From NCBI GenBank assembly GCA_049325275.1, contig JBMOLU010000009.1, forward strand, positions 45,103 through 109,102: a stretch of 64,000 nt of DNA, in the 5' to 3' direction. The notes beneath the pieces are model-generated. The model searched no databases and had not been told where the DNA came from. It saw nothing but the letters and a program-made list of their open reading frames with translations. Positions 38,897-51,306 of the stretch are shown one piece after another. Within the stretch, counting starts at the first letter, position 1, and the number at the start of each line of letters is the position of its first letter. A program made the position numbers and the translations under genes. The stretch comes from Chloroflexota bacterium (GTDB taxonomy: Bacteria; Chloroflexota; Anaerolineae; Anaerolineales; UBA4823).

Positions 38897-39173
38897 CGGG
38901 CAAAACGATCATCCTTCACCCCCACCGCAAATGATAAAATTTGCCATTATACCGGCAGCGCCTGGGGTTGCGCCATGTCCAGCTTTAACGCTGGCGTGCG
39001 CATGATCCACCCGCAACAACGTGACCGCTTTCTCCGATTGGACCACCGGGAACGAAGCGGGGCCAACGGCTATTCACGTGATGTCCTTTGCCGCTCACTC
39101 TGGGTCTCAAAGGATCGGTTTCTTGCTCCTCGGGCTGGCTTTGGCAACGGGCGCATGCAGGGTTGTCTGGCGA

Positions 39174-39494
39174 TCAAGGCCAAAAAAGCTGTAATAGCAA
39201 CAACACTCCCATCCCCACCACAATCGTCCAGACGATATTTTTCGTGCGCCAGGCGATCCAGGCCGCCACTACGCCGGCAAGCAAGCGTGGGTTGAAGGGG
39301 ATAAAAGTGCCATCTCGAATCAGCAGTTCGGGGAAAATGATCGCCGTCAGCACCGCAGGTGGCACGAAACGCAGGGCGCGCCGCAGCCAACCGGGCGGCG
39401 CCCAGCGGCCCCACAGGGCAATGAACGACAGGCGCGTCACAAAGGTCAGCAGCCCGGCCAGGAACAAGGTGAGCCAGACGCTTGCCGCATTCAT
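39174..39494 (-). CDS. azlD: AzlD family membrane protein
   Basis: TFVTR, LRFVPPAVLTAII; overlaps the azlC stop. Confidence 0.85.
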   Translation of the reverse strand: MNAASVWLTLFLAGLLTFVTRLSFIALWGRWAPPGWLRRALRFVPPAVLTAIIFPELLIRDGTFIPFNPRLLAGVVAAWIAWRTKNIVWTIVVGMGVLLLLQLFWP

Positions 39495-40210
39495 GGTTTT
39501 TGCTTCCATCCTTCGGCCCACATCCCCACCAGGATTCCGGCCGCTGCGGCGACCATCAACCCCAGCTTGTAGGGCAAGCTGTAAGTCAGCAGCGCCGTCG
39601 CGCCCGCAACCGAGGCCGCCGCCACGCTGGGGCGGTCTTTCAAGGCTGGGACCACCAGCGCAATGAACGTCAACGCCAGCGTAAAGTCAAGCGACCAGCT
39701 TGCGGGCACCTGCGCGCCCAGGAAAATGCCCACAGCAGTCGAGAGCTGCCAGGTAGTCCACAAAGCCAGCGCGCCGCCGAGAAAGTACCAGTGATTCTGC
39801 TGTGCAGCCGGCTGACCGGCGTTTGCTCCGGGGGAAAGCGAAGCATAACGCGTGATCGCCACAGCATAGGCCTCATCGGTCAGCACGTAGGCCAACAGGA
39901 GCTTCCAACGGCGCGGCAAGTGCTGGACGTAAGGAGCAACCGAGGCGCTGTAGAGCGCATGGCGCAAGTTGACGACAAACGCCGTCAACACGAGCACCCC
40001 AAGCGGTGCGCCAGCCGCAAACAACTGCACCATGATAAACTGCGCCGACCCGGCAAAGACCACCGACGACATCCCCTGCGCGGCAGCCGGGCCCAGGCCA
40101 GCCTGGAGCGCCAGCACGCCGTAGATCATGCCAAAGGGAGACGTACCCAGTAAGATCGGCAGGCAGGCGCGCACACCAGAAACGAAGGATGAAAAGCGGG
40201 GGGAGTACAT
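39491..40210 (-). CDS. azlC: AzlC family permease
   Basis: MS..VFAGSAQF, VNLRHALYS, LTDEAYA. Confidence 0.9.
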   Translation of the reverse strand: MYSPRFSSFVSGVRACLPILLGTSPFGMIYGVLALQAGLGPAAAQGMSSVVFAGSAQFIMVQLFAAGAPLGVLVLTAFVVNLRHALYSASVAPYVQHLPRRWKLLLAYVLTDEAYAVAITRYASLSPGANAGQPAAQQNHWYFLGGALALWTTWQLSTAVGIFLGAQVPASWSLDFTLALTFIALVVPALKDRPSVAAASVAGATALLTYSLPYKLGLMVAAAAGILVGMWAEGWKQKP

Positions 40211-40342
40211 GATGGGTGATGGGATGATACGTGATGCGTGATGGGCGGCCGATTCAGGTTTCATGCAGCACGGCGAGTATACCGCGCCGGATGGTCTTTT
40301 CTTTTGTTTCTTCTGCACAATTCTCGGCCCTCAGCGTTGTTC

Positions 40343-40371
40343 TTGACGAATGCCGGGGCGGATGATAGACT
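40343..40371 (+). promoter_or_regulatory. Promoter of the arg operon leader
   Basis: TTGACG-N17-TAGACT with TGn extended -10. Confidence 0.65.
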
Positions 40372-40381
40372 CTCGACCACT

Positions 40382-40459
40382 ATGGCTATCCTTTTTTTTC
40401 GTCGCGCGCGTCGTACCTTACCTGCCCCTCGGGAAGGTGGGTTGCTTGCGCGTGCTTGA
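40382..40459 (+). CDS. Putative Arg-rich attenuator leader peptide
   Basis: MAILFFRRARRTLPAPREGGLLARA; 6 Arg of 25, including RRARR; lies between the promoter and a terminator before argG. Confidence 0.65.
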   Translation: MAILFFRRARRTLPAPREGGLLARA

Positions 40460-40481
40460 TTTTCAAGTGGATTGATCTGCG

Positions 40482-40508
40482 AAGCCCTCCATTCCCGGAG
40501 GGCTTTTT
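40482..40508 (+). terminator. Attenuator terminator upstream of argG
   Basis: aagccctcc-attccc-ggagggctt followed by a T run. Confidence 0.75.
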
Positions 40509-40609
40509 GTTGCCCAAAGCAGAGAGCAAAAGCCGGTAAACAGCCGCCAAAGCAATTGTCGTACAAACGCGATGCTCTCCATTTTCTCTTCTTTTTCCAG
40601 GAGGTTCCC

Positions 40610-41875
40610 ATGTCCCAACCCAGCGTCAAGAAAGTCGTTCTTGCCTACTCGGGCGGTCTTGACACGTCCGTCATTGTGCCTTGGCTCAAAGAAAACTATG
40701 ACTGCGAGGTGGTTTGCTTTACTGCCGATATCGGCCAGGCTGACGAAAACACCGGGCTTGAAGAAAAAGCCCTCGCCAGCGGCGCCAGCCAGCTGGTGAT
40801 GAAAGACTTGCGTGAAGAGTTTGCCAGCGATTACCTGTTTCCCCTGCTGCGCTCCGGCGCCGTTTACGAACGCAAGTACCTGCTCGGAACCTCGGTAGCC
40901 CGCCCTCTGATCGCCAAGCACCAGGTGGAAGTCGCTCACGAAGTCGGCGCAGACGCGGTTGCCCACGGTGCAACCGGGAAAGGGAACGACCAGGTGCGTT
41001 TCGAGTTGACCTTCACGGCCCTTGATCCACGCCTGAAGATCATCGCCCCCTGGCGAGAAAAGAACTGGAAGATTCGCTCGCGCGAAGATGCCATCCAATA
41101 CGCAGCCGCACACAACGTGCCCGTCGCCGCCACACTCAAGTCGATTTACAGCCGCGACCGCAACCTGTGGCACATTTCGCACGAGGGCGGCACGCTCGAA
41201 GACCCCTGGAACGAACCCGAAGAAGCCATGTTCCAACTCAGCGCTTCGCCTGAAAATGCCCCCGACCAACCCGAATACGTCGAAATCGGCTTCGAATCCG
41301 GCTCGCCGGTGAGCGTCAACGGCGAGAAAATGTCGCCGGCCAATCTGATCGCTTACCTGAACGTGCTGGGCGGCAAACATGGCATCGGGCGCGTCGACAT
41401 GGTCGAAGGCCGCCTGGTTGGGATGAAATCGCACGGCGTTTACGAAACCCCGGGCGGTGCGATTCTGCTCGCCGCCCACCGGGAAGTCGAATCGCTGGTG
41501 CTCGACCGCGACACGATGCACTTCAAAGACACGCTGGCGCTCAAATATGCCGAGTTGGTCTACAACGGCATGTGGTTTTCGCCGCTACGCGAGGCGCTGG
41601 ATGCTTTCTTCGACAACACACAAGGTCCCGTAACCGGGCTGGTGCGCCTCAAACTCTACAAGGGCAACGTTATCCCGGTCGGGCGCAAGAGTCCCTTCAG
41701 CCTGTACCGTGAAGACTTCGCCACCTTCGGGCAAGAAAACGTCTACGATCAAAGTCACGCCGATGGCTTCATCCGCCTCTACGGCCTGCCGCTCAAAGTG
41801 CGCGCCCTCAACGATCTGCCCGTTTCGGGCCTGAACATGCCGAAACCGGATTATTCGCGGTTTAAACGGGACTAA
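40610..41875 (+). CDS. argG: Argininosuccinate synthase
   Basis: [41 protein letters not shown]; GGAGG SD. Confidence 0.97.
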
Positions 41876-41877
41876 AT

Positions 41878-41931
41878 TTTCACGTATCACGTTTTACAAG
41901 TGTTTCGATGCATGATACGTGATGCGTGATT
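41878..41931. repeat. Heptamer-built imperfect palindrome (TCACGYA family)
   Basis: tttcacg tatcacg .. catgata cgtgatg cgtgatt. Confidence 0.65.
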
Positions 41932-41946
41932 TCAGTGGAGCTACCG

Positions 41947-43353
41947 ATGACTCTTTGGGGTGGACGTTTTTCTACCAAACTTGACTCACTGGCCTGGGAT
42001 TTGAATACATCCCTGGGTTTCGACCGGCGCATGGCGCAGCAGGACGTGCGCGCCAGCATAGCCTGGGCCAGGGCCATCGCCGCAGCCGGCGTGCTCACTA
42101 CGGAAGAGTGCGAGCAGGTTTGCGCCGGTTTGCGGGCCATCGGCGATGAATTTGGCACCGGAACGTTCGTCTTTCAGCCCAGCGACGAAGACATTCACAC
42201 CGCCGTGGAGCGCCGCCTGGGCGAGATCGTCGGTCCGGCGGCCGGCAAACTGCACACCGGGCGCTCGCGCAACGACCAGGTAGCCACAGATTTTCGCCTG
42301 TGGGTGCTCGATCATTTGCCGGCGCTGGAGGCGGCCGTGCAGGACATGCAAACCGCCCTCGTCGAACGGGCCGAAACCGACTTCGGTCTGCTCATGCCGG
42401 GTTACACTCACCTGCAACGCGCCCAACCAATCCTGCTCAGCCATTGGTGGTTGAGCCACTTTTGGCCGCTACAGCGCGACCGCCAACGCCTGGCCGATCT
42501 GCGCCGCAGAGTTGCCGTCATGCCGCTGGGGTGTGGTGCCCTGGCCGGCTGCCCCTTCTCGATCGATCGCGACGCCCTGGCCGGCGACCTGGGTTTCGAT
42601 TTGCCGGCCCACAACAGCCTGGATGCCGTCTCGGACCGCGATTTCGCCGCCGAATTCCTGTTTTGCACCTCGCTGATCGGCGTCCACCTGGGCAAGCTCT
42701 CCGAAGCAATGGTCCTGTTCACGACCACCGAATTCGGCTTCTTCGAGCTTTCCGACGCCTATTCAACCGGTTCGTCGCTCATGCCGCAGAAGAAGAATCC
42801 CGATCTGTTCGAACTGGCACGCGGCAAAGCGGGCACGCTGCTCGGCCTGCTGAGCGGGATGCTGGCCACCCTCAAGGGCCTGCCATCGACCTACGACAAA
42901 GACCTGCAAGAAGACAAGCCGCCCGTCTTCGCCGCCTTCGACACGCTGACGATGATCCTGCCGGTACTGGCCGGTGCGCTGCGCACCCTGGCGGTAAAGC
43001 CGGCGCGTCTGCGCGCCGGGATCGACCCCGCCATGCTCGCCACCGACCTGGCCGACTACCTGGTCGAACGCGGTGTGCCTTTTCGCGAGGCGCATGCGCT
43101 CGCCGGAAAATCGGTACGTCTGGCTGCCGAGAAGGGCGTGCCGCTCGATCAACTGAGCACAGAAGAATACCAATCGTTGCATCCTACCTTCGGCCCGGAC
43201 GTGCACCAGGTTTTCGACCCGGCCCAATCCGTAACCCGGCGCAAAGCCATCGGCGGCACAGCGCCCGAAGCGGTACAGGTGCAATGCCAACAAGCGAAAG
43301 CGTTTTTACATCGCACGCCCTATGATCCTTCCAACCCTATCCCGTTGATATGA
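41947..43353 (+). CDS. argH: Argininosuccinate lyase
   Basis: [45 protein letters not shown]. Confidence 0.97.
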
Positions 43354-44486
43354 TGACCCAAGCAACTCTCGTACTTCAAGATGGCACCATTCTCCAGGGC
43401 GAAGCCTTCGGAGCCGAAGCCGACCGTGTTTTCGAGCTGGTTTTCAATACCTCGATGACCGGCTACCAGGAAATTCTCACCGATCCGTCCTACCGCGGCC
43501 AGGCCGTGCTCTTCACTTGCTCGCATATCGGTAACGTCGGCATCAACACCGAGGATCACGAATCTCGTATCCCGCAGGTTTCAGCGGCGGTGGTACGGGC
43601 GCTCAGCCCAATCGTCTCCAACTGGCGGGCGACGCAAGATCTGTCGGCGTGGCTGGCCACGCACGGCGTGCCCGGCATCAGCGGCGTCGACACGCGCTAT
43701 CTCACCCGCAAGTTGCGCGATGGGGGCACGCAAAAAGCGGCCATCTCCACCCGCGGCACACCCGCCGCAAAGCTACTGGACATGGCGCGTGAATGGTCTG
43801 GCCTGGACGGGCTTGACATGGTCAAAGAAGTCACCTGTCCTGAGCCTTACCCATGGACGGGCGACCTCGGCTCCAAATGGGTGCCGCAAACCGCTGGCGC
43901 ACCACGAAAGCCCATCCGCATGGTCGCCTACGACTTCGGCATCAAGCACAACATCCTGCGCCACCTGGCGAGCTATGGCGCCAGCGTCACCGTCGTCCCG
44001 GCCGACACACCGGCCAGTGAAGTCCTGGCGATGAAGCCCGAGGCGATCTTCCTCTCCAACGGCCCCGGCGACCCGGAAGGGCTGCCGTATGCCGTCGAGG
44101 CAGTACGTGGCTTGCTGGATGCGGACGTGCCCATCCTGGGTATCTGCCTCGGCCACCAGCTGATCGGCATGGCCGTGGGCGGTAAAAAGACGCGCCTGAA
44201 GTTCGGCCACCACGCCGGCAACCACCCCGTGCAAGATTTACGCAGCGGCAAAGTGCAAATTACCGCCCAAAACCACAACTACTGTGTCGAAGCCGACAGC
44301 CTCGACCCGGCCCAGGTCGAAGTCACCCATCTCAGCCTGAACGATAACTCGCTCGAAGGCCTGCGCCTGCGTGACCGCCTGGTGATGAGCGTGCAATATC
44401 ACCCCGAAGCAGCTCCCGGGCCGCACGATGCCATCCCGGTGTTCGAGGAGTTTTTTGGGGCGCTGGAGGTGAGGCGTGATGCGTGA
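43350..44486 (+). CDS. carA: Carbamoyl-phosphate synthase small subunit
   Basis: [36 protein letters not shown]. Confidence 0.97.
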
Positions 44487-44526: not shown

Positions 44527-45330
44527 ATGAACCTCCTCTCCAATCCATCCTACCTCCTCACGCATCAATATCAAAACGCATCCAACCTGGAAGCGCGCAT
44601 GCAGTTACACGAGCGTTTCAGCACCAATCCATACCCCTGGCACCGCTGGGTGTTCGACCAGTTCGAGCTGCCCGCGGAGGCGTGTGTTTTAGAGCTGGGC
44701 TGCGGGCCGGCCAGATTGTGGACGGAGAACCTGGATCGGGTGCCTGCCGGTTGGGCGATCACGCTGTCCGATTTTTCTACGGGAATGCTCGCCCAGGCCC
44801 AGCAAAACCTGGCGCAAGCCACGCATCCTTTCCGCTTCGAGCAGGTCGACGCCCAGTCCATCCCGTTCGATGATGCTGCCTTCGACGCCGTCATCGCCAA
44901 CCAGATGCTTTACCACGTGCCCGATCTGCCGCAAGCGCTCGGCGAAATCCGGCGCGTGCTCAAACCCGGCGGGCGCCTGTATGCCGGCACGAACGGCGCC
45001 AACCACCTGCGCGAGCTGGACGATCTGATCCGCGCTTTCGACCCAGACTTGACGTTCATGCAGCAAATCTCGCTCAAATTCACGCTGGAAAACGGCGGCG
45101 ATCAACTTGCGCCCTGTTTCGGCTCCATTCAAATCGTACGCCAGCCTAATGCGCTGGTCGTCACCGAAGCCGGCCCGCTGGTAGACTATGTGCGTTCGAT
45201 GATGCGCATTTCGCTTGCTGAAAGCAAGTTCAAAGAAAAATTCCCGCAGTACGTTGCCGATGTCTTGCAGAAAAACGGCGGGCAAATCCGCATCAGCAAA
45301 GATGCCGGGTTGTTTACGGCCAGATGTTGA
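44527..45330 (+). CDS. Class I SAM-dependent methyltransferase
   Basis: VLELGCGP, DFSTGML, MLYHVPD, RVLKPGG. Confidence 0.9.
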   Translation: MNLLSNPSYLLTHQYQNASNLEARMQLHERFSTNPYPWHRWVFDQFELPAEACVLELGCGPARLWTENLDRVPAGWAITLSDFSTGMLAQAQQNLAQATHPFRFEQVDAQSIPFDDAAFDAVIANQMLYHVPDLPQALGEIRRVLKPGGRLYAGTNGANHLRELDDLIRAFDPDLTFMQQISLKFTLENGGDQLAPCFGSIQIVRQPNALVVTEAGPLVDYVRSMMRISLAESKFKEKFPQYVADVLQKNGGQIRISKDAGLFTARC

Positions 45331-45348
45331 TGAGAAAAAGCCGCTCTT

Positions 45349-46109
45349 TTGCGCTATATCCGTAGTATGAAAACGCAGCAAACAATCAAATTTCTCTTTT
45401 TGTTTCCTGTCAACAGTGGACGAGAACTGCCAGTCCAATCAGGAGTTGAGGGTATTCAACTTCACTACGAACGCCCAAACGGCGTGCTGTTTTTAGGAAA
45501 CTCGCTAAAACGAACAAATTCCCGCTGCGCACGGATAGCGTCCACATTCCTTATGGGAAGCACACGTTGAAATATCCCGTCCATCCACAAGCAGAGACCA
45601 GTCACTTTGGTAATGACAAAAAGCGTGAAGAGCACTGGACATCAAATCCCTTGGGCGCAAAACCTAAAGGTATTTCAGAACTCCCGACCACCTGTAATGG
45701 CATGGGAGAAAAAACACTCCATCCAACAATGAGTTATCAGCACGACTTATTATTGTTTCAAGGGGACAAACTCAAGGTAATTGGTTCTGCTGTAAACACC
45801 TCCAGCAAGGATCGGCTCGACAAGATTTTCATCGATACGTTTTTATATAGCCGCCTAACTGAAACGGCCATCCCTCACACCGCTATTTTCTTGAACGATG
45901 TTCAAAGAAAGAAAACGAGGCGAGAAAAGGAGTATGGCGTTAATGCAACCTTCCTTCCAGGGCATTTCAAAGGGTATACGGTCAAACTAAATCCATTCGA
46001 TGGGGTTTACCACTGCGATATTCGTCCCAACATGCAAACCGATGAATTTTTGAAGGCCCATATCAAGAGCATGATGCTTTTTCTGCGGTGGCTTGGGAGA
46101 GCTTTGTAA
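45349..46109 (+). pseudogene. Low-GC fragmented remnant, possibly of a restriction-modification system
   Basis: Two short ORFs with poor starts; HYERPNGVLFLGNSL resembles a DNA MTase N-terminus; D..IGSAVNTSSKDR..D resembles a PD-(D/E)xK core. Confidence 0.35.
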
Positions 46110-46113
46110 ATCT

Positions 46114-46734
46114 ATGAACCACTTCGACCTCGGCGCCCGTGAATGGGATAACGACCCCAAGCGCATCCTGCGCGCCAACACCGTGGCGCAGGCCATCGTT
46201 GCCGCAGTACCTTTGAACCGGCAAATGGCCGCCCTCGAATACGGCTGCGGCACCGGGCTGCTTTCGTTTGCCTTGCAGCCACACCTCGGGCCGATCACGC
46301 TGGCCGATAGCTCTGCCGGCATGTTGGAAGTCTTAAGCGAAAAAATCGCCGCAGCAGGGATCACGAATATGGCGCCCCTGTGGCTCGATCTTGCCACCCA
46401 AACGCTTCCTGGCGAACACTTCGACATCATCTACACCCTGATGGCGCTGCACCACATCCCCGATACCACCGCCATCCTGGGCAGCTTCCATACCCTGCTC
46501 AATCCCGGCGGCCACCTGTGCATCGCCGACCTGGACCAGGAAGATGGATCTTTTCACACACACGAATCGGGTTTCGATGGCCACCACGGCTTCGAACGCA
46601 CGGCCTTAACCCGGCAGCTTTCGCAGGCCGGTTTCGATCACATTCGCTTCACGACCTGCTTCGAGATGACGAAAAACGGACGAGTATATCCTATTTTTCT
46701 AGCCACTGCAAAAAGCGTGAAACGTGATGCGTGA
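46114..46734 (+). CDS. Class I SAM-dependent methyltransferase
   Basis: FD..AREWD, LEYGCGTG, MALHHIPD, LNPGG.L.IADL. Confidence 0.9.
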   Translation: MNHFDLGAREWDNDPKRILRANTVAQAIVAAVPLNRQMAALEYGCGTGLLSFALQPHLGPITLADSSAGMLEVLSEKIAAAGITNMAPLWLDLATQTLPGEHFDIIYTLMALHHIPDTTAILGSFHTLLNPGGHLCIADLDQEDGSFHTHESGFDGHHGFERTALTRQLSQAGFDHIRFTTCFEMTKNGRVYPIFLATAKSVKRDA

Positions 46735-46765
46735 GCCAATCACGCTTCATCCATCACATTTCACA
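46715..46765. repeat. Heptamer-built palindrome overlapping the MTase stop
   Basis: cgtgaaa cgtgatg cgtgagccaatcacg cttcatc catcaca tttcaca. Confidence 0.7.
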
Positions 46766-46784
46766 CATTCCTATGAACATCCCT

Positions 46785-47123
46785 ATGAACATCCCTAACT
46801 TCAACACCTACCAAACCGAATCACGCAAAACCTGGAGCCTGATCCACACCGATCATGCCATCGTTTACCCCACGCTCGGCCTGGCCAACGAAGCCGGTGA
46901 AGTGGCCGGCAAAGTCAAAAAACTCTTTCGTGACAAAAACGGCCAGATTTCCGCCGCCGACCGCGAAGCGCTCAAACAGGAACTCGGCGACGTGCTCTGG
47001 TATCTGGCGCAAATCTGCACCGAGCTCGATCTCTCGCTTCAAGAAATCGCCGAAGCCAACCTCGCCAAGCTCTTCGACCGGCTGGAACGCGGGGTGATTC
47101 GAGGCGACGGCGATCAGCGATAA
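46785..47123 (+). CDS. MazG-like nucleotide pyrophosphohydrolase
   Basis: LGLANEAGEV..KVKK, ELGDVLWY, N..KL..R, GDGDQR; alternative start at 46773 from a 12-bp duplication. Confidence 0.9.
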   Translation: MNIPNFNTYQTESRKTWSLIHTDHAIVYPTLGLANEAGEVAGKVKKLFRDKNGQISAADREALKQELGDVLWYLAQICTELDLSLQEIAEANLAKLFDRLERGVIRGDGDQR

Positions 47124-47128
47124 GATTA

Positions 47129-47181
47129 TGTGAAACGCGGAACGTGATGCGTGAGTCAATCACATTTCACGCATCACGCAC
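47129..47181. repeat. Heptamer-built palindrome
   Basis: tgtgaaa cgcggaa cgtgatg cgtgagtcaatcaca tttcacg catcacg. Confidence 0.7.
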
Positions 47182-47201
47182 CAAGCAACAAGGTACTTTT
47201 T

Positions 47202-47969
47202 ATGCTCACAAATGCTACTCTGTCCACATCATCCTGGCTTACCCGCTGGGATCGCATGCAAGAACGCTACCTTGTGGCGCGTGACGAGCGCTTCGCCGTC
47301 ATGGCGCAGCTCGTCCGGGCGACACGAGGCGACGCGCCCCAGATTCTCGACCTGGGCTGCGGCACGGGCAGCGTGATGGCAGCCCTGCTCGAAGCCATCC
47401 CCGGCAGCCGCGCTGTCGGCGTGGATATGGATCCGACCTTGCTCCGTTTGGCCGAAATGAGGCTGAACACCTACGGGGAACGGGCACAGGCGCTTTGGGC
47501 CGATCTGCGCCAGCCTGGCTGGGAGTCGCGGCTTCAACCGAAAAGATTCGGCGTCCTTGTTTCGGCAACGGCCCTGCACTGGCTGAGCACCGAGCAGCTC
47601 TCTGCGCTATACACCCAGGTTGCCGGCCTTCTCGAACCGGGCGGCATCTTCCTGAATGCCGACCACGTCGCCAGCGATCATCCCCAGGTTCAACAATCCT
47701 GGGAACGGAACCGGGCGCAAGCCCTGGCCACAAACGCTGCCATGGAAGGCGAAGACTGGGATTCTTTCTGGTCTGCCTATTTAGCCGAACTCGGCCCCGA
47801 AGCTGCCGCCGAACGCCAACGCGTCCTTGGCGAGTGGCACGGCGTCGAAGCCGGCCAACCGCTCGCCTGGCACCTCGACCAATTGCGCCAGGCCGGCTTT
47901 TCTTCCGTCGATTGTTTCTGGCGCGCCGACTGTGACGCGATTTACGGCGGCGTAAAACGCGGCGCCTAA
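47202..47969 (+). CDS. Class I SAM-dependent methyltransferase
   Basis: [33 protein letters not shown]. Confidence 0.88.
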
Positions 47970-48030: not shown

Positions 48031-51000
48031 ATGCCTAAACGAACTGACATTCACACCATCCTCGTCCCCGGCTCCGGCCCGATTGTCATCGGCCAGGCGG
48101 CCGAGTTCGACTACTCCGGCACGCAGGCCGTCAAGGCGCTGCGCAGCCAGGGGTACCGTGTCGTGTTGGTCAACTCGAACCCAGCCACGATCATGACCGA
48201 TCCTGAGCTGGCCGACGCCACCTACATCGAACCGCTGACCCCTGAAGCGCTCGAGGCGATCATCGCCCAGGAAAAACCCGACGCCATGCTGCCAACCGTC
48301 GGCGGGCAAACCGGCCTCAACCTGGCCCTGGCGCTGAGCGAGAACGGCGTACTGGAAAGATATGGCGTCAAGCTGATCGGCGCAACACTGGAGGCCATCG
48401 AGGCCGCCGAGGACCGCCGCAAATTCCGCGACACGATGCTCGCCCATGGTCTGCCCGTGCCCAAGGGTGGCCCCGTCCAAACGTTGGAAGAAGCCGAAGC
48501 CCTGGCAGCCGAAATCGGCTATCCGCTGCTGGTGCGGGCCTCGTTTGCCCTGGGCGGCAGCGGGGCGGCCTGGATTTACGAGCACAGCCAACTGCGCGAG
48601 GCCACGCGTAAGGCCATCGCCGTCTCGCCGATCGGGCAGGCCTGGGTGGAAGAATCGGTGTTGGGCTGGAAAGAATACGAGCTGGAAGTGATGCGCGACA
48701 AAGCCGATAACTTCGTCGTGGTCTGCTCGATCGAGAATCTCGACCCGATGGGCGTACATACCGGCGACAGCATCACCATCGCCCCGGCGCAAACCCTTAC
48801 CGACCGCGAATACCAGGTCCTGCGCGACCTTGCCAAGGGCGTGATGAGCGCCGTCGGCGTGGAAACCGGCGGGTCGAACGTGCAGTTTGCCGTCGACCCG
48901 CACACCGGGCGCTCGCTGATCATCGAGATGAACCCGCGCGTCAGCCGTTCTTCCTCGCTGGCCTCCAAAGCCACCGGATTCCCGATCGCCAAGCTGGCTG
49001 CCCTGGTCGCCGTCGGCTACACCCTCGACGAAATCGTCAACGACATCACCGGCCAGACCAAGGCCTCTTTCGAGCCGTCACTCGATTACGTCGTCGTCAA
49101 AATCCCGCGCTGGGCCTTCGAGAAATTCCCCGGCGTCGACCCCACCCTCGGCCCGCAGATGAAATCGGTCGGCGAGGCCATGTCGCTTGGACGTACCTTC
49201 CCCGAGGCGCTCAACAAGGCCGTGCAGTCGCTCGAAATCGGCGTGGATGCACTGGATGGGTCCGGCCCCAAAAAGGCGGCTCCCGCAGGGGTCCCCACAC
49301 CCGAAGCCTTGCGCACCCCCACTGCCGACCGGCTCTTTGCTACCTACCGCACCATCCGCGCCGGAACGCCCCTGGAAGAAATTGCAACCGCCACCGGCTT
49401 CGATATGTGGTTCCTGGCGCAGATGAAGGAAATTGCCGGATGTGAGTGGCAGGTGGCAGGGCACAAACCGGGAGTTGCAGGTCAAAAGTCACAGGTCGCA
49501 GATCCGGATGGCGCTCTCAAGCGTTTGCTCCACAAGGCCAAACAAATGGGCTTTGCCGATTCCCACCTCGAACGCCTTCTCCCTCACGCATCACGCATCA
49601 CGCACCACGCCGATACCATCCGCCAACTGCGCAAACAACTCGGCATCCTGCCCACCTTCCAGCGCGTCGATACCTGCGCCGCCGAGTTCGAGGCCAACAC
49701 ACCTTACCTGTATTCCGCCTATGAGATGGCCGACGAGGCGCGCCCCACCAACCGCCAGAAGATTCTGATCCTGGGCGGTGGGCCCAACCGAATCGGGCAG
49801 GGCATCGAATTCGACTACTGCTGCTGCCAGGCGGCCTTCGCATTGGGCGAGATGGGTTTCGAGACGATCATGCTCAACTGCAACCCCGAAACCGTCTCCA
49901 CCGACTACGACACATCCGACCGCCTGTACTTCGAGCCGCTAACCCTGGAACACGTTCTCAACGTGGTCGATCGAGAGAATCCGGTCGGCGTGATCGTCCA
50001 ATTTGGCGGGCAGACGCCGCTCAACCTGTCGCTGGGCCTGCAAGCGGCAGGCGTGCCGATCCTGGGCACGTCACCCCAGGCCATCGAACTGGCCGAGGAC
50101 CGCGAAAAGTTTGCCGCTTTGCTTCACGAACTGGACATCCCCCAGCCTGAAAACGGCATCGCCTGTTCGCTCGAAGAAGCCGAACAAATCGCGCGCAAGC
50201 TGGGTTACCCCGTGCTGGTGCGTCCATCATTTGTGCTTGGTGGGCGCGCCATGGCTATCGTTTACGATGAAGCGCACCTGGAAGGTTTCATCCAGGAAGC
50301 TATCGAAGCTGCCCCCGGCCAGCCGCTGCTGGTCGACCGCTATCTCGAAGATGCATACGAAATCGACGTAGACGCCCTGGCCGACGGAGAACGCGTCGTC
50401 ATCGGGGCGGTTATGCAGCACATCGAGGAAGCCGGCGTTCACTCAGGCGACGCCGCCTGCGTGTTGCCGCCTTACAAAGTCAGCCAGTATCACATCAACA
50501 CCCTGCGTGAATACACCGAAAAGATCGGCCTGGCCCTCAACGTGCGCGGGCTGATGAACGTACAGTACGCCATCAAAGACGATATCGTCTACGTGCTCGA
50601 GGTTAACCCGCGTGCCTCGCGCACCGTACCCTACGCCAGCAAAGCCACCGGCCTCAACCTGGCGAAGATCGCCTCGCAGGTCATGGCCGGCAAAACGCTG
50701 GCCAGCCTGGGGATCACCGAAGAACCCGACCTCGACGGTTTTTTCATCAAGGAAGCCGTTCTGCCCTTCAAAAAGCTGCCCGGGGCCGACGCCATTCTAG
50801 GGCCCGAGATGCGTTCCACCGGCGAGGTCATGGGCCACGCCTCCCACTTCGGCCACGCCTTTGCCAAGTCGCAGCTGGCAGCCGGGTCTGGGCTGCCGCT
50901 CGAAGGCGCCGTGCTGATCACCGTCAATGACTACGACAAGGGCGCCGCGCTCAAGTTTGCCCGCGATCTGCACCGCATGGGCTTCAAACTCTATGCCACC

Positions 51001-51306
51001 CGGGGTACGGCAGCTTTCTTCAGCCACGCCGGGCTGCCGGTAGAGACAGTCAACAAAGCCGCCGAAGGCTCGCCGCACACGGTCGAATTGATCCGCGCTG
51101 GGCAGGTGCAGTTGATCCTCAACACTCCCCTCGGCTCGCAGGCTCACAGCGACGGCAACGAAATCCGCGCTGCGGCCACCTTGATGGAAGTCCCCCTGTT
51201 GACCACGCTCTCTGCCGCCGCGGCGGCCGCAGCAGCCATCCGGGCGTTAAAACAAAAAGATTTCAGTTACCGGAGCTTGCAAGAACACTACCGGCGTAAC
51301 CAGTAG
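48031..51306 (+). CDS. carB: Carbamoyl-phosphate synthase large subunit
   Basis: [56 protein letters not shown]. Confidence 0.98.

Follow-up and report, generated by a model that had tools for sequence, protein, structure and literature searches.

Introduction

Leader-peptide attenuators are classically known from proteobacterial amino-acid operons, where trpL, hisL, leuL, thrL, the ilv leaders and pheL are the standard examples, and Rfam has families for the Trp, His, Leu, Thr and Phe leaders. Arginine operons can also be controlled at transcription initiation by a DNA-binding protein, the ArgR repressor, through its ARG-box operators. Here we describe a leader upstream of argG that is probably a ribosome-mediated (leader-peptide) transcription attenuator sensing charged tRNA-Arg, a reading to which we assign a probability of roughly 0.8 on the basis of sequence comparison. 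It lies in a 64,000-nucleotide (nt) stretch of a Chloroflexota bacterium of the order Anaerolineales (assembly GCA_049325275.1, contig JBMOLU010000009.1, positions 45,103 to 109,102 of the forward strand). This whole stretch is referred to as the window, and positions are given in window numbering.

The attenuator specificities on record are His, Leu, Thr and Trp, which are in Rfam, together with Ile/Val and Phe, and arginine is not listed in the part of the source considered here (PMC3766115). The nearest leader found to sense Arg codons, judging from the sections of the report consulted, is orf34 of Salmonella speF, which has two consecutive Arg codons and where a ribosome that pauses when arginine is low causes the mRNA to adopt an alternative structure (PMC6386406). 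T-boxes, as described in the accessible portion of another study, provide control of arginine at the RNA level (PMC1262725). New upstream open reading frame (uORF) attenuators are still emerging from comparative genomics, such as the candidate cysS motif uORFC-8-2 with tandem Cys codons, and an arginine-synthesis case was not seen among the candidates in the part of that report considered (PMC8632094). A leader-peptide attenuator for arginine biosynthesis was found neither in Rfam 15 nor in the full-text literature, with subscription journals outside the search. This agrees with the initial annotation of the window, made from its letters alone, which noted no well-described example.

A putative arginine attenuator upstream of argG

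We identified a leader of about 130 nt ahead of argG with the following features.

40343 to 40348, + strand: -35 hexamer TTGACG (promoter scan)
40363 to 40371, + strand: extended -10 element TGATAGACT, with hexamer TAGACT at 40366-40371 (promoter scan)
40382 to 40459, + strand: leader open reading frame (ORF) MAILFFRRARRTLPAPREGGLLARA, 25 codons plus TGA at 40457-40459 (translation; comparative frame conservation)
40400 to 40414, + strand: Arg codons CGT CGC (GCG) CGT CGT, with the conserved, putatively regulatory pair at 40409-40414 (sequence; codon counts in relatives)
40404 to 40429, + strand: segment 1, 5' strand of the predicted anti-antiterminator hairpin (whole-leader fold; relatives; column-based count weak)
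40431 to 40455, + strand: segment 2, comprising the box GGGAAGGUGGGUU (40431-40443) and GCGCGUGC (40448-40455), with segment 1 or segment 3 as predicted partner (folds; covariation)
40481 to 40496, + strand: segment 3, terminator 5' arm and loop, GAAGCCCUCC AUUCCC (fold; covariation)
40497 to 40511, + strand: segment 4, terminator 3' arm GGAGGGCUUU and U tract (folds; covariation)

The promoter, the ORF and the terminator proposed in the initial annotation are all present. The promoter is of the sigma-70 type (TTGACG-17 nt-TAGACT, with TG preceding the -10) and is the sole promoter-like site within 39400-41200, one being found against 0.4 expected from shuffles. The leader ATG at 40382 begins 10 nt past the -10 hexamer, which leaves no room for a Shine-Dalgarno sequence and therefore points to near-leaderless initiation, as had been claimed for this 25-residue RRARR ORF; Arg accounts for 6 of the 25 residues (RRARR and two others). 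The intrinsic terminator at 40481-40511, GAAGCCCUCC-AUUCCC-GGAGGGCUUU followed by UUGUU, folds with -17.8 kcal/mol (z-score -4.6, equalled by none of 200 shuffles). It ends 99 nt before the argG ATG at 40610, where about 100 nt had been suggested. A simple terminator scanner missed this site, presumably because its T-count rule fails when the stem extends into the T run.

In the mechanism that we propose, sequence is the basis for inferring where transcription starts, that the ORF is translated, that ribosomes pause at its Arg codons and which way the response goes. Transcription would begin just ahead of the AUG at 40382, within a few bases of it, and the near-leaderless mini-ORF would then take up a ribosome. 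When Arg-tRNA is scarce, this ribosome would pause with CGU CGU (40409-40414) in its decoding centre and would cover segment 1 to about 40425-40428. The freed box of segment 2 (40431-40443) would then pair with the terminator 5' arm and loop (40483-40496), so that the terminator would be blocked and RNA polymerase would continue into argG-argH-carA. When Arg-tRNA is plentiful, the ribosome would pass segment 2 and reach the stop codon, the terminator would form and transcription would end. Without a ribosome, segments 1 and 2 would pair with each other, and the terminator would again form and end transcription. Of the two Arg pairs, 40409-40414 would be the decisive pausing site; with the ribosome halted already at 40400-40405, much of segment 1 would stay uncovered.

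Folding of the leader is consistent with these alternatives. The minimum-energy fold of the whole leader (-56.4 kcal/mol, z-score -4.1, 0/200 shuffles) contains a hairpin between 40404-40429 and 40431-40455, followed by the terminator. Within it, 40404-40411 pairs with 40448-40455, and CUUACCU/CCC pairs with GGG/AGGUGGG; both of the strands earlier proposed to sequester segment 2, namely the Arg-codon segment and accttacc, thus do so in this fold. When the 5' part is omitted and folding starts at 40426, GGGAAGGUGGGUU instead pairs with AAGCCCUCCAUUCCC, which is the terminator 5' arm plus loop, and no terminator is formed even with its 3' arm included.

Conservation of the element in Anaerolineales

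The conserved regulatory element before argG is real across Anaerolineales, and its sequence features, conservation, helix covariation, ORF coding constraint and arginine-biosynthesis context are established. A DNA search of 40 relatives recovered the leader in both same-genus genomes and the terminator just upstream of argG in nine more. The 12 upstream regions all follow one plan. A promoter comes first, with an ATG about 10 nt further on. This ATG opens a short ORF that encodes R-[A/S]-R-R or an Arg run of similar kind, as with RRSSRR in one region; a box of the GGAAGG type and the terminator AGCCCUCC...GGAGGGCUUUUU follow. Using covariance model R1 (E<=1e-3), we found matches in 73 of 137 family genomes, with 28 of 46 high-quality genomes and 39 of 55 genera represented. 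Model R2 (E<=1e-5) matched 78 of 151 genomes sampled from the order, in 16 of its 18 families. A total of 94 full-length matches were fetched, of which 83 precede argG, 10 precede a lysW/lysX-like pair and one precedes another gene.

A class-wide sample gave matches in 13 of 151 genomes, with full-length matches in six genomes of other orders, and a phylum-wide R2 scan outside the order gave no credible full-length match. Five matching genomes outside the order (family f86) were rejected as members on account of mostly terminator-only partial matches; the one full-length match in f86 (26.3 bits, minus strand) was rejected as well, as it overlaps a terminator-only match. The covariance model is a description of a sequence family centred on one order, and not of all Arg leaders.

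Among 80 named argG loci, the element was found at 42, and all 42 argG genes are at least 71% identical. Forty of these loci are labelled Anaerolineae or Chloroflexi/Chloroflexota, and the labels of the other two, Gemmatimonadales and Herpetosiphon sp., probably reflect mislabelled bins. The closest argG loci in named public genomes come from metagenome-assembled genomes (MAGs) labelled Anaerolineales, Anaerolineae or Chloroflexota, from a Bellilinea MAG and from Anaerolinea thermolimosa IMO-1, a cultured organism that carries the element at L112:1292-1448 and in which it is therefore directly testable. At 37 argG loci there was no match or a weak one (L122, 14.9 bits), and four of these (L116, L117, L119 and L122, labelled Anaerolineae, Anaerolineaceae or Chloroflexota) have an Arg-codon uORF, such as MNENIYDLHLSCRRARRNDGKPSG or MKTIRRRSTIGSEIRPQV, with a terminator of other sequence. 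The occurrence of Arg mini-ORFs with unrelated terminator sequences at distant Chloroflexota argG loci indicates that the design reaches beyond the modelled sequence family. None of the 24 argG loci labelled with other phyla among these 37 had a terminator together with an Arg-containing uORF.

Coding constraint on the mini-ORF

An Arg-rich uORF with a terminator upstream of argG in relatives, which the initial annotation had put forward as a check, was found: an in-frame ATG...CGN CGN ORF is kept in 83 of 86 distinct copies. Two of the three exceptions have one Arg codon of the pair replaced and the third has Thr codons. Where the ATG stands at the conserved model position, it is in frame with the Arg pair in 71 of 72 copies, at seven distances of 21-39 nt, each a multiple of 3. 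Of the 83 copies, 72 have a recognisable -35/-10 pair; the gap between the -10 and the ATG is 7-10 nt in 68 of these 72 and exactly 10 nt in 50. The leader peptides have 18-59 residues and share R-x-R-R in 76 of 83 copies, with Pro next in 34 of the 83. Arg makes up 17% of their residues, as compared with 6.2% in the long ORFs of the genome.

Codon choice within the pair is strongly biased, the first codon being CGT in 81 and the second in 73 of the 83 copies. In the long ORFs of the genome, CGT accounts for 17.5% of Arg codons and CGC is the commonest at 53%, whereas the leaders use CGT almost exclusively. ARAGORN identified tRNA-Arg genes with anticodons CCT, CCG, TCG, GCG and TCT in the same genome and none with ACG, although such a gene could be missing from this assembly of 90 contigs. 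If the tRNA-Arg set is complete, CGU would be read by G:U wobble, and this would suit a sensitive sensor.

Geometry and covariation of the competing helices

The spacing of the parts is regular. Between the Arg pair and segment 2 there are 16-27 nt (median 19; 83 copies), and the stop codon lies at least 2 nt beyond the segment 2 start in 83/83 copies and 22-63 nt ahead of the terminator arm in 82/83. We folded 85 copies with the RNA starting 13 nt beyond the Arg pair and ending with the terminator loop, and a median of 7 of 8 terminator-arm bases paired with segment 2. When the same copies were folded from the ATG to before the terminator, a median of 9 of 12 segment-2 bases were paired, with partners mostly at +2 to +16 after the Arg pair. 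This partner stretch would be covered by a ribosome paused at the Arg pair.

Both the terminator and the predicted antiterminator show compensatory changes. Across 84 relatives, the cells of the terminator helix are 97.8% paired, and compensatory changes occur at 6 of its 8 pairs (30 cells; 0/500 shuffles). In the antiterminator (columns 92-98 with 214-220), 86.6% are paired and all 7 pairs have compensatory changes (40 cells; 0/500 shuffles), compared with 7-14 cells in slid controls. For example, GGGAAGG/CCUUCCC in some copies is replaced by GAGAAGG/CCUUCUC in others. In addition, columns 214 and 215 covary with both of their partners. Such three-way changes, seen in GAGAAAG/CUUUCUC with an altered 3' arm and in GAGAAGA/UCUUCUC with GAAGGGC in the 3' arm, are as expected for mutually exclusive helices.

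An alignment-free comparison pointed in the same direction. The cognate pairing of segment 2 with the terminator arm has -17.0 kcal/mol, against -14.6 +/- 0.24 for permuted partners (0/5000) and -9.6 for shuffled segment 2, and that of segment 1 with segment 2 has -14.5 against -12.3 kcal/mol (0/5000). The 1:2, 2:3, 3:4 logic proposed at the outset has thus gained support from about 85 distinct relatives, in which the frame and the Arg pair are kept, the spacing is fixed, the changes are compensatory and the targets are arginine-biosynthesis genes.

A second Arg leader and candidate leaders of other specificity

We also found a second Arg leader, MKTLLISPRSRRFPKRLQGPSVLCV, in the same genome (C2:204216-204366), upstream of lysW (PF21344), lysX (PF22626, RimK) and a gene for an argC/lysY-type dehydrogenase. 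It again has CGC TCC CGT CGT; its terminator GGCCUCCG...CGGAGGCU and its segment 2 AAGGCCCUUCGG differ from those of the argG leader. AAGGCCCUUCGG can pair either with the strand right after the Arg codons or with the terminator arm, which is again the 1:2/2:3/3:4 layout. As this leader was not found full length by the covariance model, it provides independent support for the design. Its Arg codons suggest that the LysW-carrier operon serves arginine/ornithine synthesis.

Other mini-ORFs with terminators were noted in the same genome, where a promoter-constrained scan (too strict) gave 8 candidates and a looser scan gave 70 rows, mostly noise, of which four were examined. An aspartokinase gene (AA_kinase and ACT domains) is preceded, at a distance of 19 nt, by a mini-ORF MKMIFGGTIMTSTTTQDTLLGC with a terminator at C19:21736, which from its codons and layout looks like a Thr-codon attenuator of the same style. 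A Pro-rich mini-ORF MHSLPVPPAPCHPFPFGLLVA with a terminator at C46:105338, directly ahead of the prolyl-tRNA synthetase gene, may be a leader-peptide attenuator that acts on a gene for an aminoacyl-tRNA synthetase. At C2:7132, a Phe/Tyr-rich mini-ORF MFFGLFTFYMYATA begins 6 nt past a TATAAT box and is followed by a terminator and a tyrosyl-tRNA synthetase gene (tRNA-synt_1b, SYY C-terminal domain and S4). In a genome of the same family, L077:2501-2647 (- strand) combines the same chassis with Thr codons, MDLNCATTTRAMTTTTSPNRWGVRA, and a terminator of other sequence. It stands upstream of a gene for a 460-aa class I/II aminotransferase and is the one fetched match that precedes neither argG nor lysW/lysX.

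Genes around the leader

The initial annotation had the leader followed by argG-argH-carA-carB. The first three genes do follow, but carB does not adjoin carA and lies 3.5 kb past it, as listed below.

40610 to 41875, + strand: argG, argininosuccinate synthase (PF00764, PF20979), with GGAGG at 40600-40604
41926 to 43353, + strand: argH, argininosuccinate lyase (PF00206, PF14698)
43350 to 44486, + strand: carA, carbamoyl-phosphate synthase small chain, its start overlapping the argH end (domain search)
48031 to 51306, + strand: carB, carbamoyl-phosphate synthase large chain (domain search)

The gap between carA and carB (44527-47969, + strand) has five ORFs, of which three encode SAM-dependent (S-adenosylmethionine-dependent) methyltransferases, one a MazG-like protein and one a protein without a Pfam match. 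A carAB pair interrupted in this way is an unusual insertion. Within the carA-carB stretch, the count of downstream terminator-like sites in a simple scan was not above chance, and it is uncertain whether carB is under the control of the leader element. The upstream neighbour is an azlC-like gene (39491-40318, - strand) that is divergent from the leader.

Other arginine regulators

A search for the C-terminal domain of ArgR (PF02863) gave no match in this genome (99.94% complete) and none in 101 genomes of the order, 98 of which are of high quality; in a control set of 14 well-known genomes it detected the domain in 8. An ArgR/ARG-box regulon was rejected given the absence of PF02863 from the 101 order genomes searched, no search having been made for ARG-box operators. 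Within 39000-42000, none of the 4227 families of Rfam 15 reached its gathering score at E up to 10, and the best sub-threshold hits were Phe_leader at 24.8 bits (gathering 55, E 0.38) and rnk_pseudo at 24 bits. A T-box was rejected likewise, as the same region and E limit gave no T-box match and the short leader contains a conserved ORF.

We propose, with slightly less than even confidence, that in Anaerolineales without ArgR leaderless Arg mini-genes are the main arginine regulators, acting over argG-argH-carA and the LysW operon, which would then serve ornithine/arginine and not lysine. They would belong to a wider set of leaderless Thr, Pro and possibly Tyr/Phe attenuators that also act on aminoacyl-tRNA synthetase genes, as T-boxes do in Firmicutes.

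Alternative explanations

Several points weigh against an attenuator that senses tRNA-Arg charging. The antiterminator pairing of 40431-40443 in the initial annotation does form when the 5' part is omitted, but taken alone the antiterminator fold of this leader is no better than shuffles (z-score -1.07, 26/200); support for the predicted antiterminator is comparative and does not come from its own single sequence. The column-based count for the 1:2 helix is weak as well (60.1% paired, against 57.2% in shuffles and 58.6% after a +1 slide), because the helix register differs between copies. As the sequences are related, the shuffle and permutation counts above overstate independence and are not probabilities. 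The models gave no match in 64 of the 137 genomes of the family and in 73 of the 151 of the order; many of these are incomplete and the filters were strict, and some of the weakest matches counted in the family and order are terminator-only. Promoter spacing is the sole pointer to the putative transcription start and leaderless initiation. In addition, the letters of the terminator stem GCCCUCC/GGAGGGC and of CGT CGT are unusually invariant, which could reflect a bound factor or an RNA-level constraint.

The last point leads to one alternative, in which the switch is real but is set by a PyrR-like or TRAP-like protein or by a small ligand at the GGGAAGG box or the terminator stem, with the ORF incidental or serving coupling only. 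Near-invariance of the stem and of box 2 across the order would be unusual for a plain terminator, and the antiterminator of this leader is not thermodynamically outstanding. Nevertheless, we consider this alternative unlikely, since the frame, start and Arg pair are kept through indels that are all multiples of three, the lysW leader keeps the Arg codons and the layout and not the box or stem sequences, leaders on the same chassis with Thr or Pro codons precede Thr- or Pro-related genes, and the Rfam search gave no family at gathering score. It is also conceivable that the mini-ORF is translated and controls termination without sensing tRNA-Arg charging, either because free arginine stalls the ribosome by way of the nascent R-x-R-R(P) peptide, comparable to TnaC or the fungal arginine attenuator peptide, or because the element reports overall translation capacity. 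The frequency of R-x-R-R and of the following Pro, together with some peptide-level similarity beyond the Arg pair, would fit a nascent-peptide stall. The sign would be wrong, as a stall frees the antiterminator and stalling at high arginine would raise arginine synthesis. Outside the Arg codons, moreover, the peptides vary in length and sequence and the residues over box 2 follow the RNA pairing, and the Thr and Pro versions have matching target genes, so that we regard this explanation as improbable.

Short ORFs and hairpins are common, and a chance ORF beside an ordinary terminator without a regulatory role might be considered for a single locus. We find this hardly credible with about 85 distinct copies conserved upstream of the same genes and showing covariation, and with no such combination at the 24 argG loci labelled with other phyla. 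Furthermore, because azlC is divergent, the terminator has no upstream gene to serve. Leader-peptide attenuation in response to tRNA-Arg charging thus remains the preferred reading of the argG element.

Comparison with known systems

A well-supported arginine case would indicate how arginine synthesis could be controlled throughout an order that lacks ArgR. The element would also illustrate, in nature, attenuation by a mini-gene that is leaderless or nearly so, in which coupling of ribosome and polymerase would begin at the first bases of the transcript. In addition, the lysW leader would offer a sequence-based hint at the end product of a LysW-type operon in uncultured bacteria.

Like the classical attenuators, the argG element has a short ORF with cognate codons, three overlapping helices (1:2/2:3/3:4) and, ahead of the first gene for biosynthesis, an intrinsic terminator. 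The predicted direction of control is also the same. It differs from them in its Arg specificity, in its phylum and in having no sequence relation to them, and its ORF, set 10 nt past the -10 without a Shine-Dalgarno sequence, runs through segment 2 instead of ending before it. The target of Salmonella speF orf34 is ornithine decarboxylase (polyamine synthesis), and its outputs, in the sections of the report consulted, are Rho-dependent termination, ribosome-binding-site access and RNase G decay (PMC6386406); the argG element, in contrast, would act on arginine synthesis via an intrinsic terminator and a competing antiterminator. With a T-box it would share the sensing of tRNA-Arg charging by RNA and a terminator/antiterminator output before arg genes, whereas T-boxes are far longer, contain no ORF and recognise uncharged tRNA by direct binding. 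With ArgR it would share end-product control of arginine-biosynthesis operons. As for the cysS motif uORFC-8-2, the mechanism is deduced from a conserved start, tandem cognate codons and a terminator stem, and the two differ in amino acid, gene and lineage. If well supported, the arginine case would extend the list of specificities known for leader-peptide attenuation.

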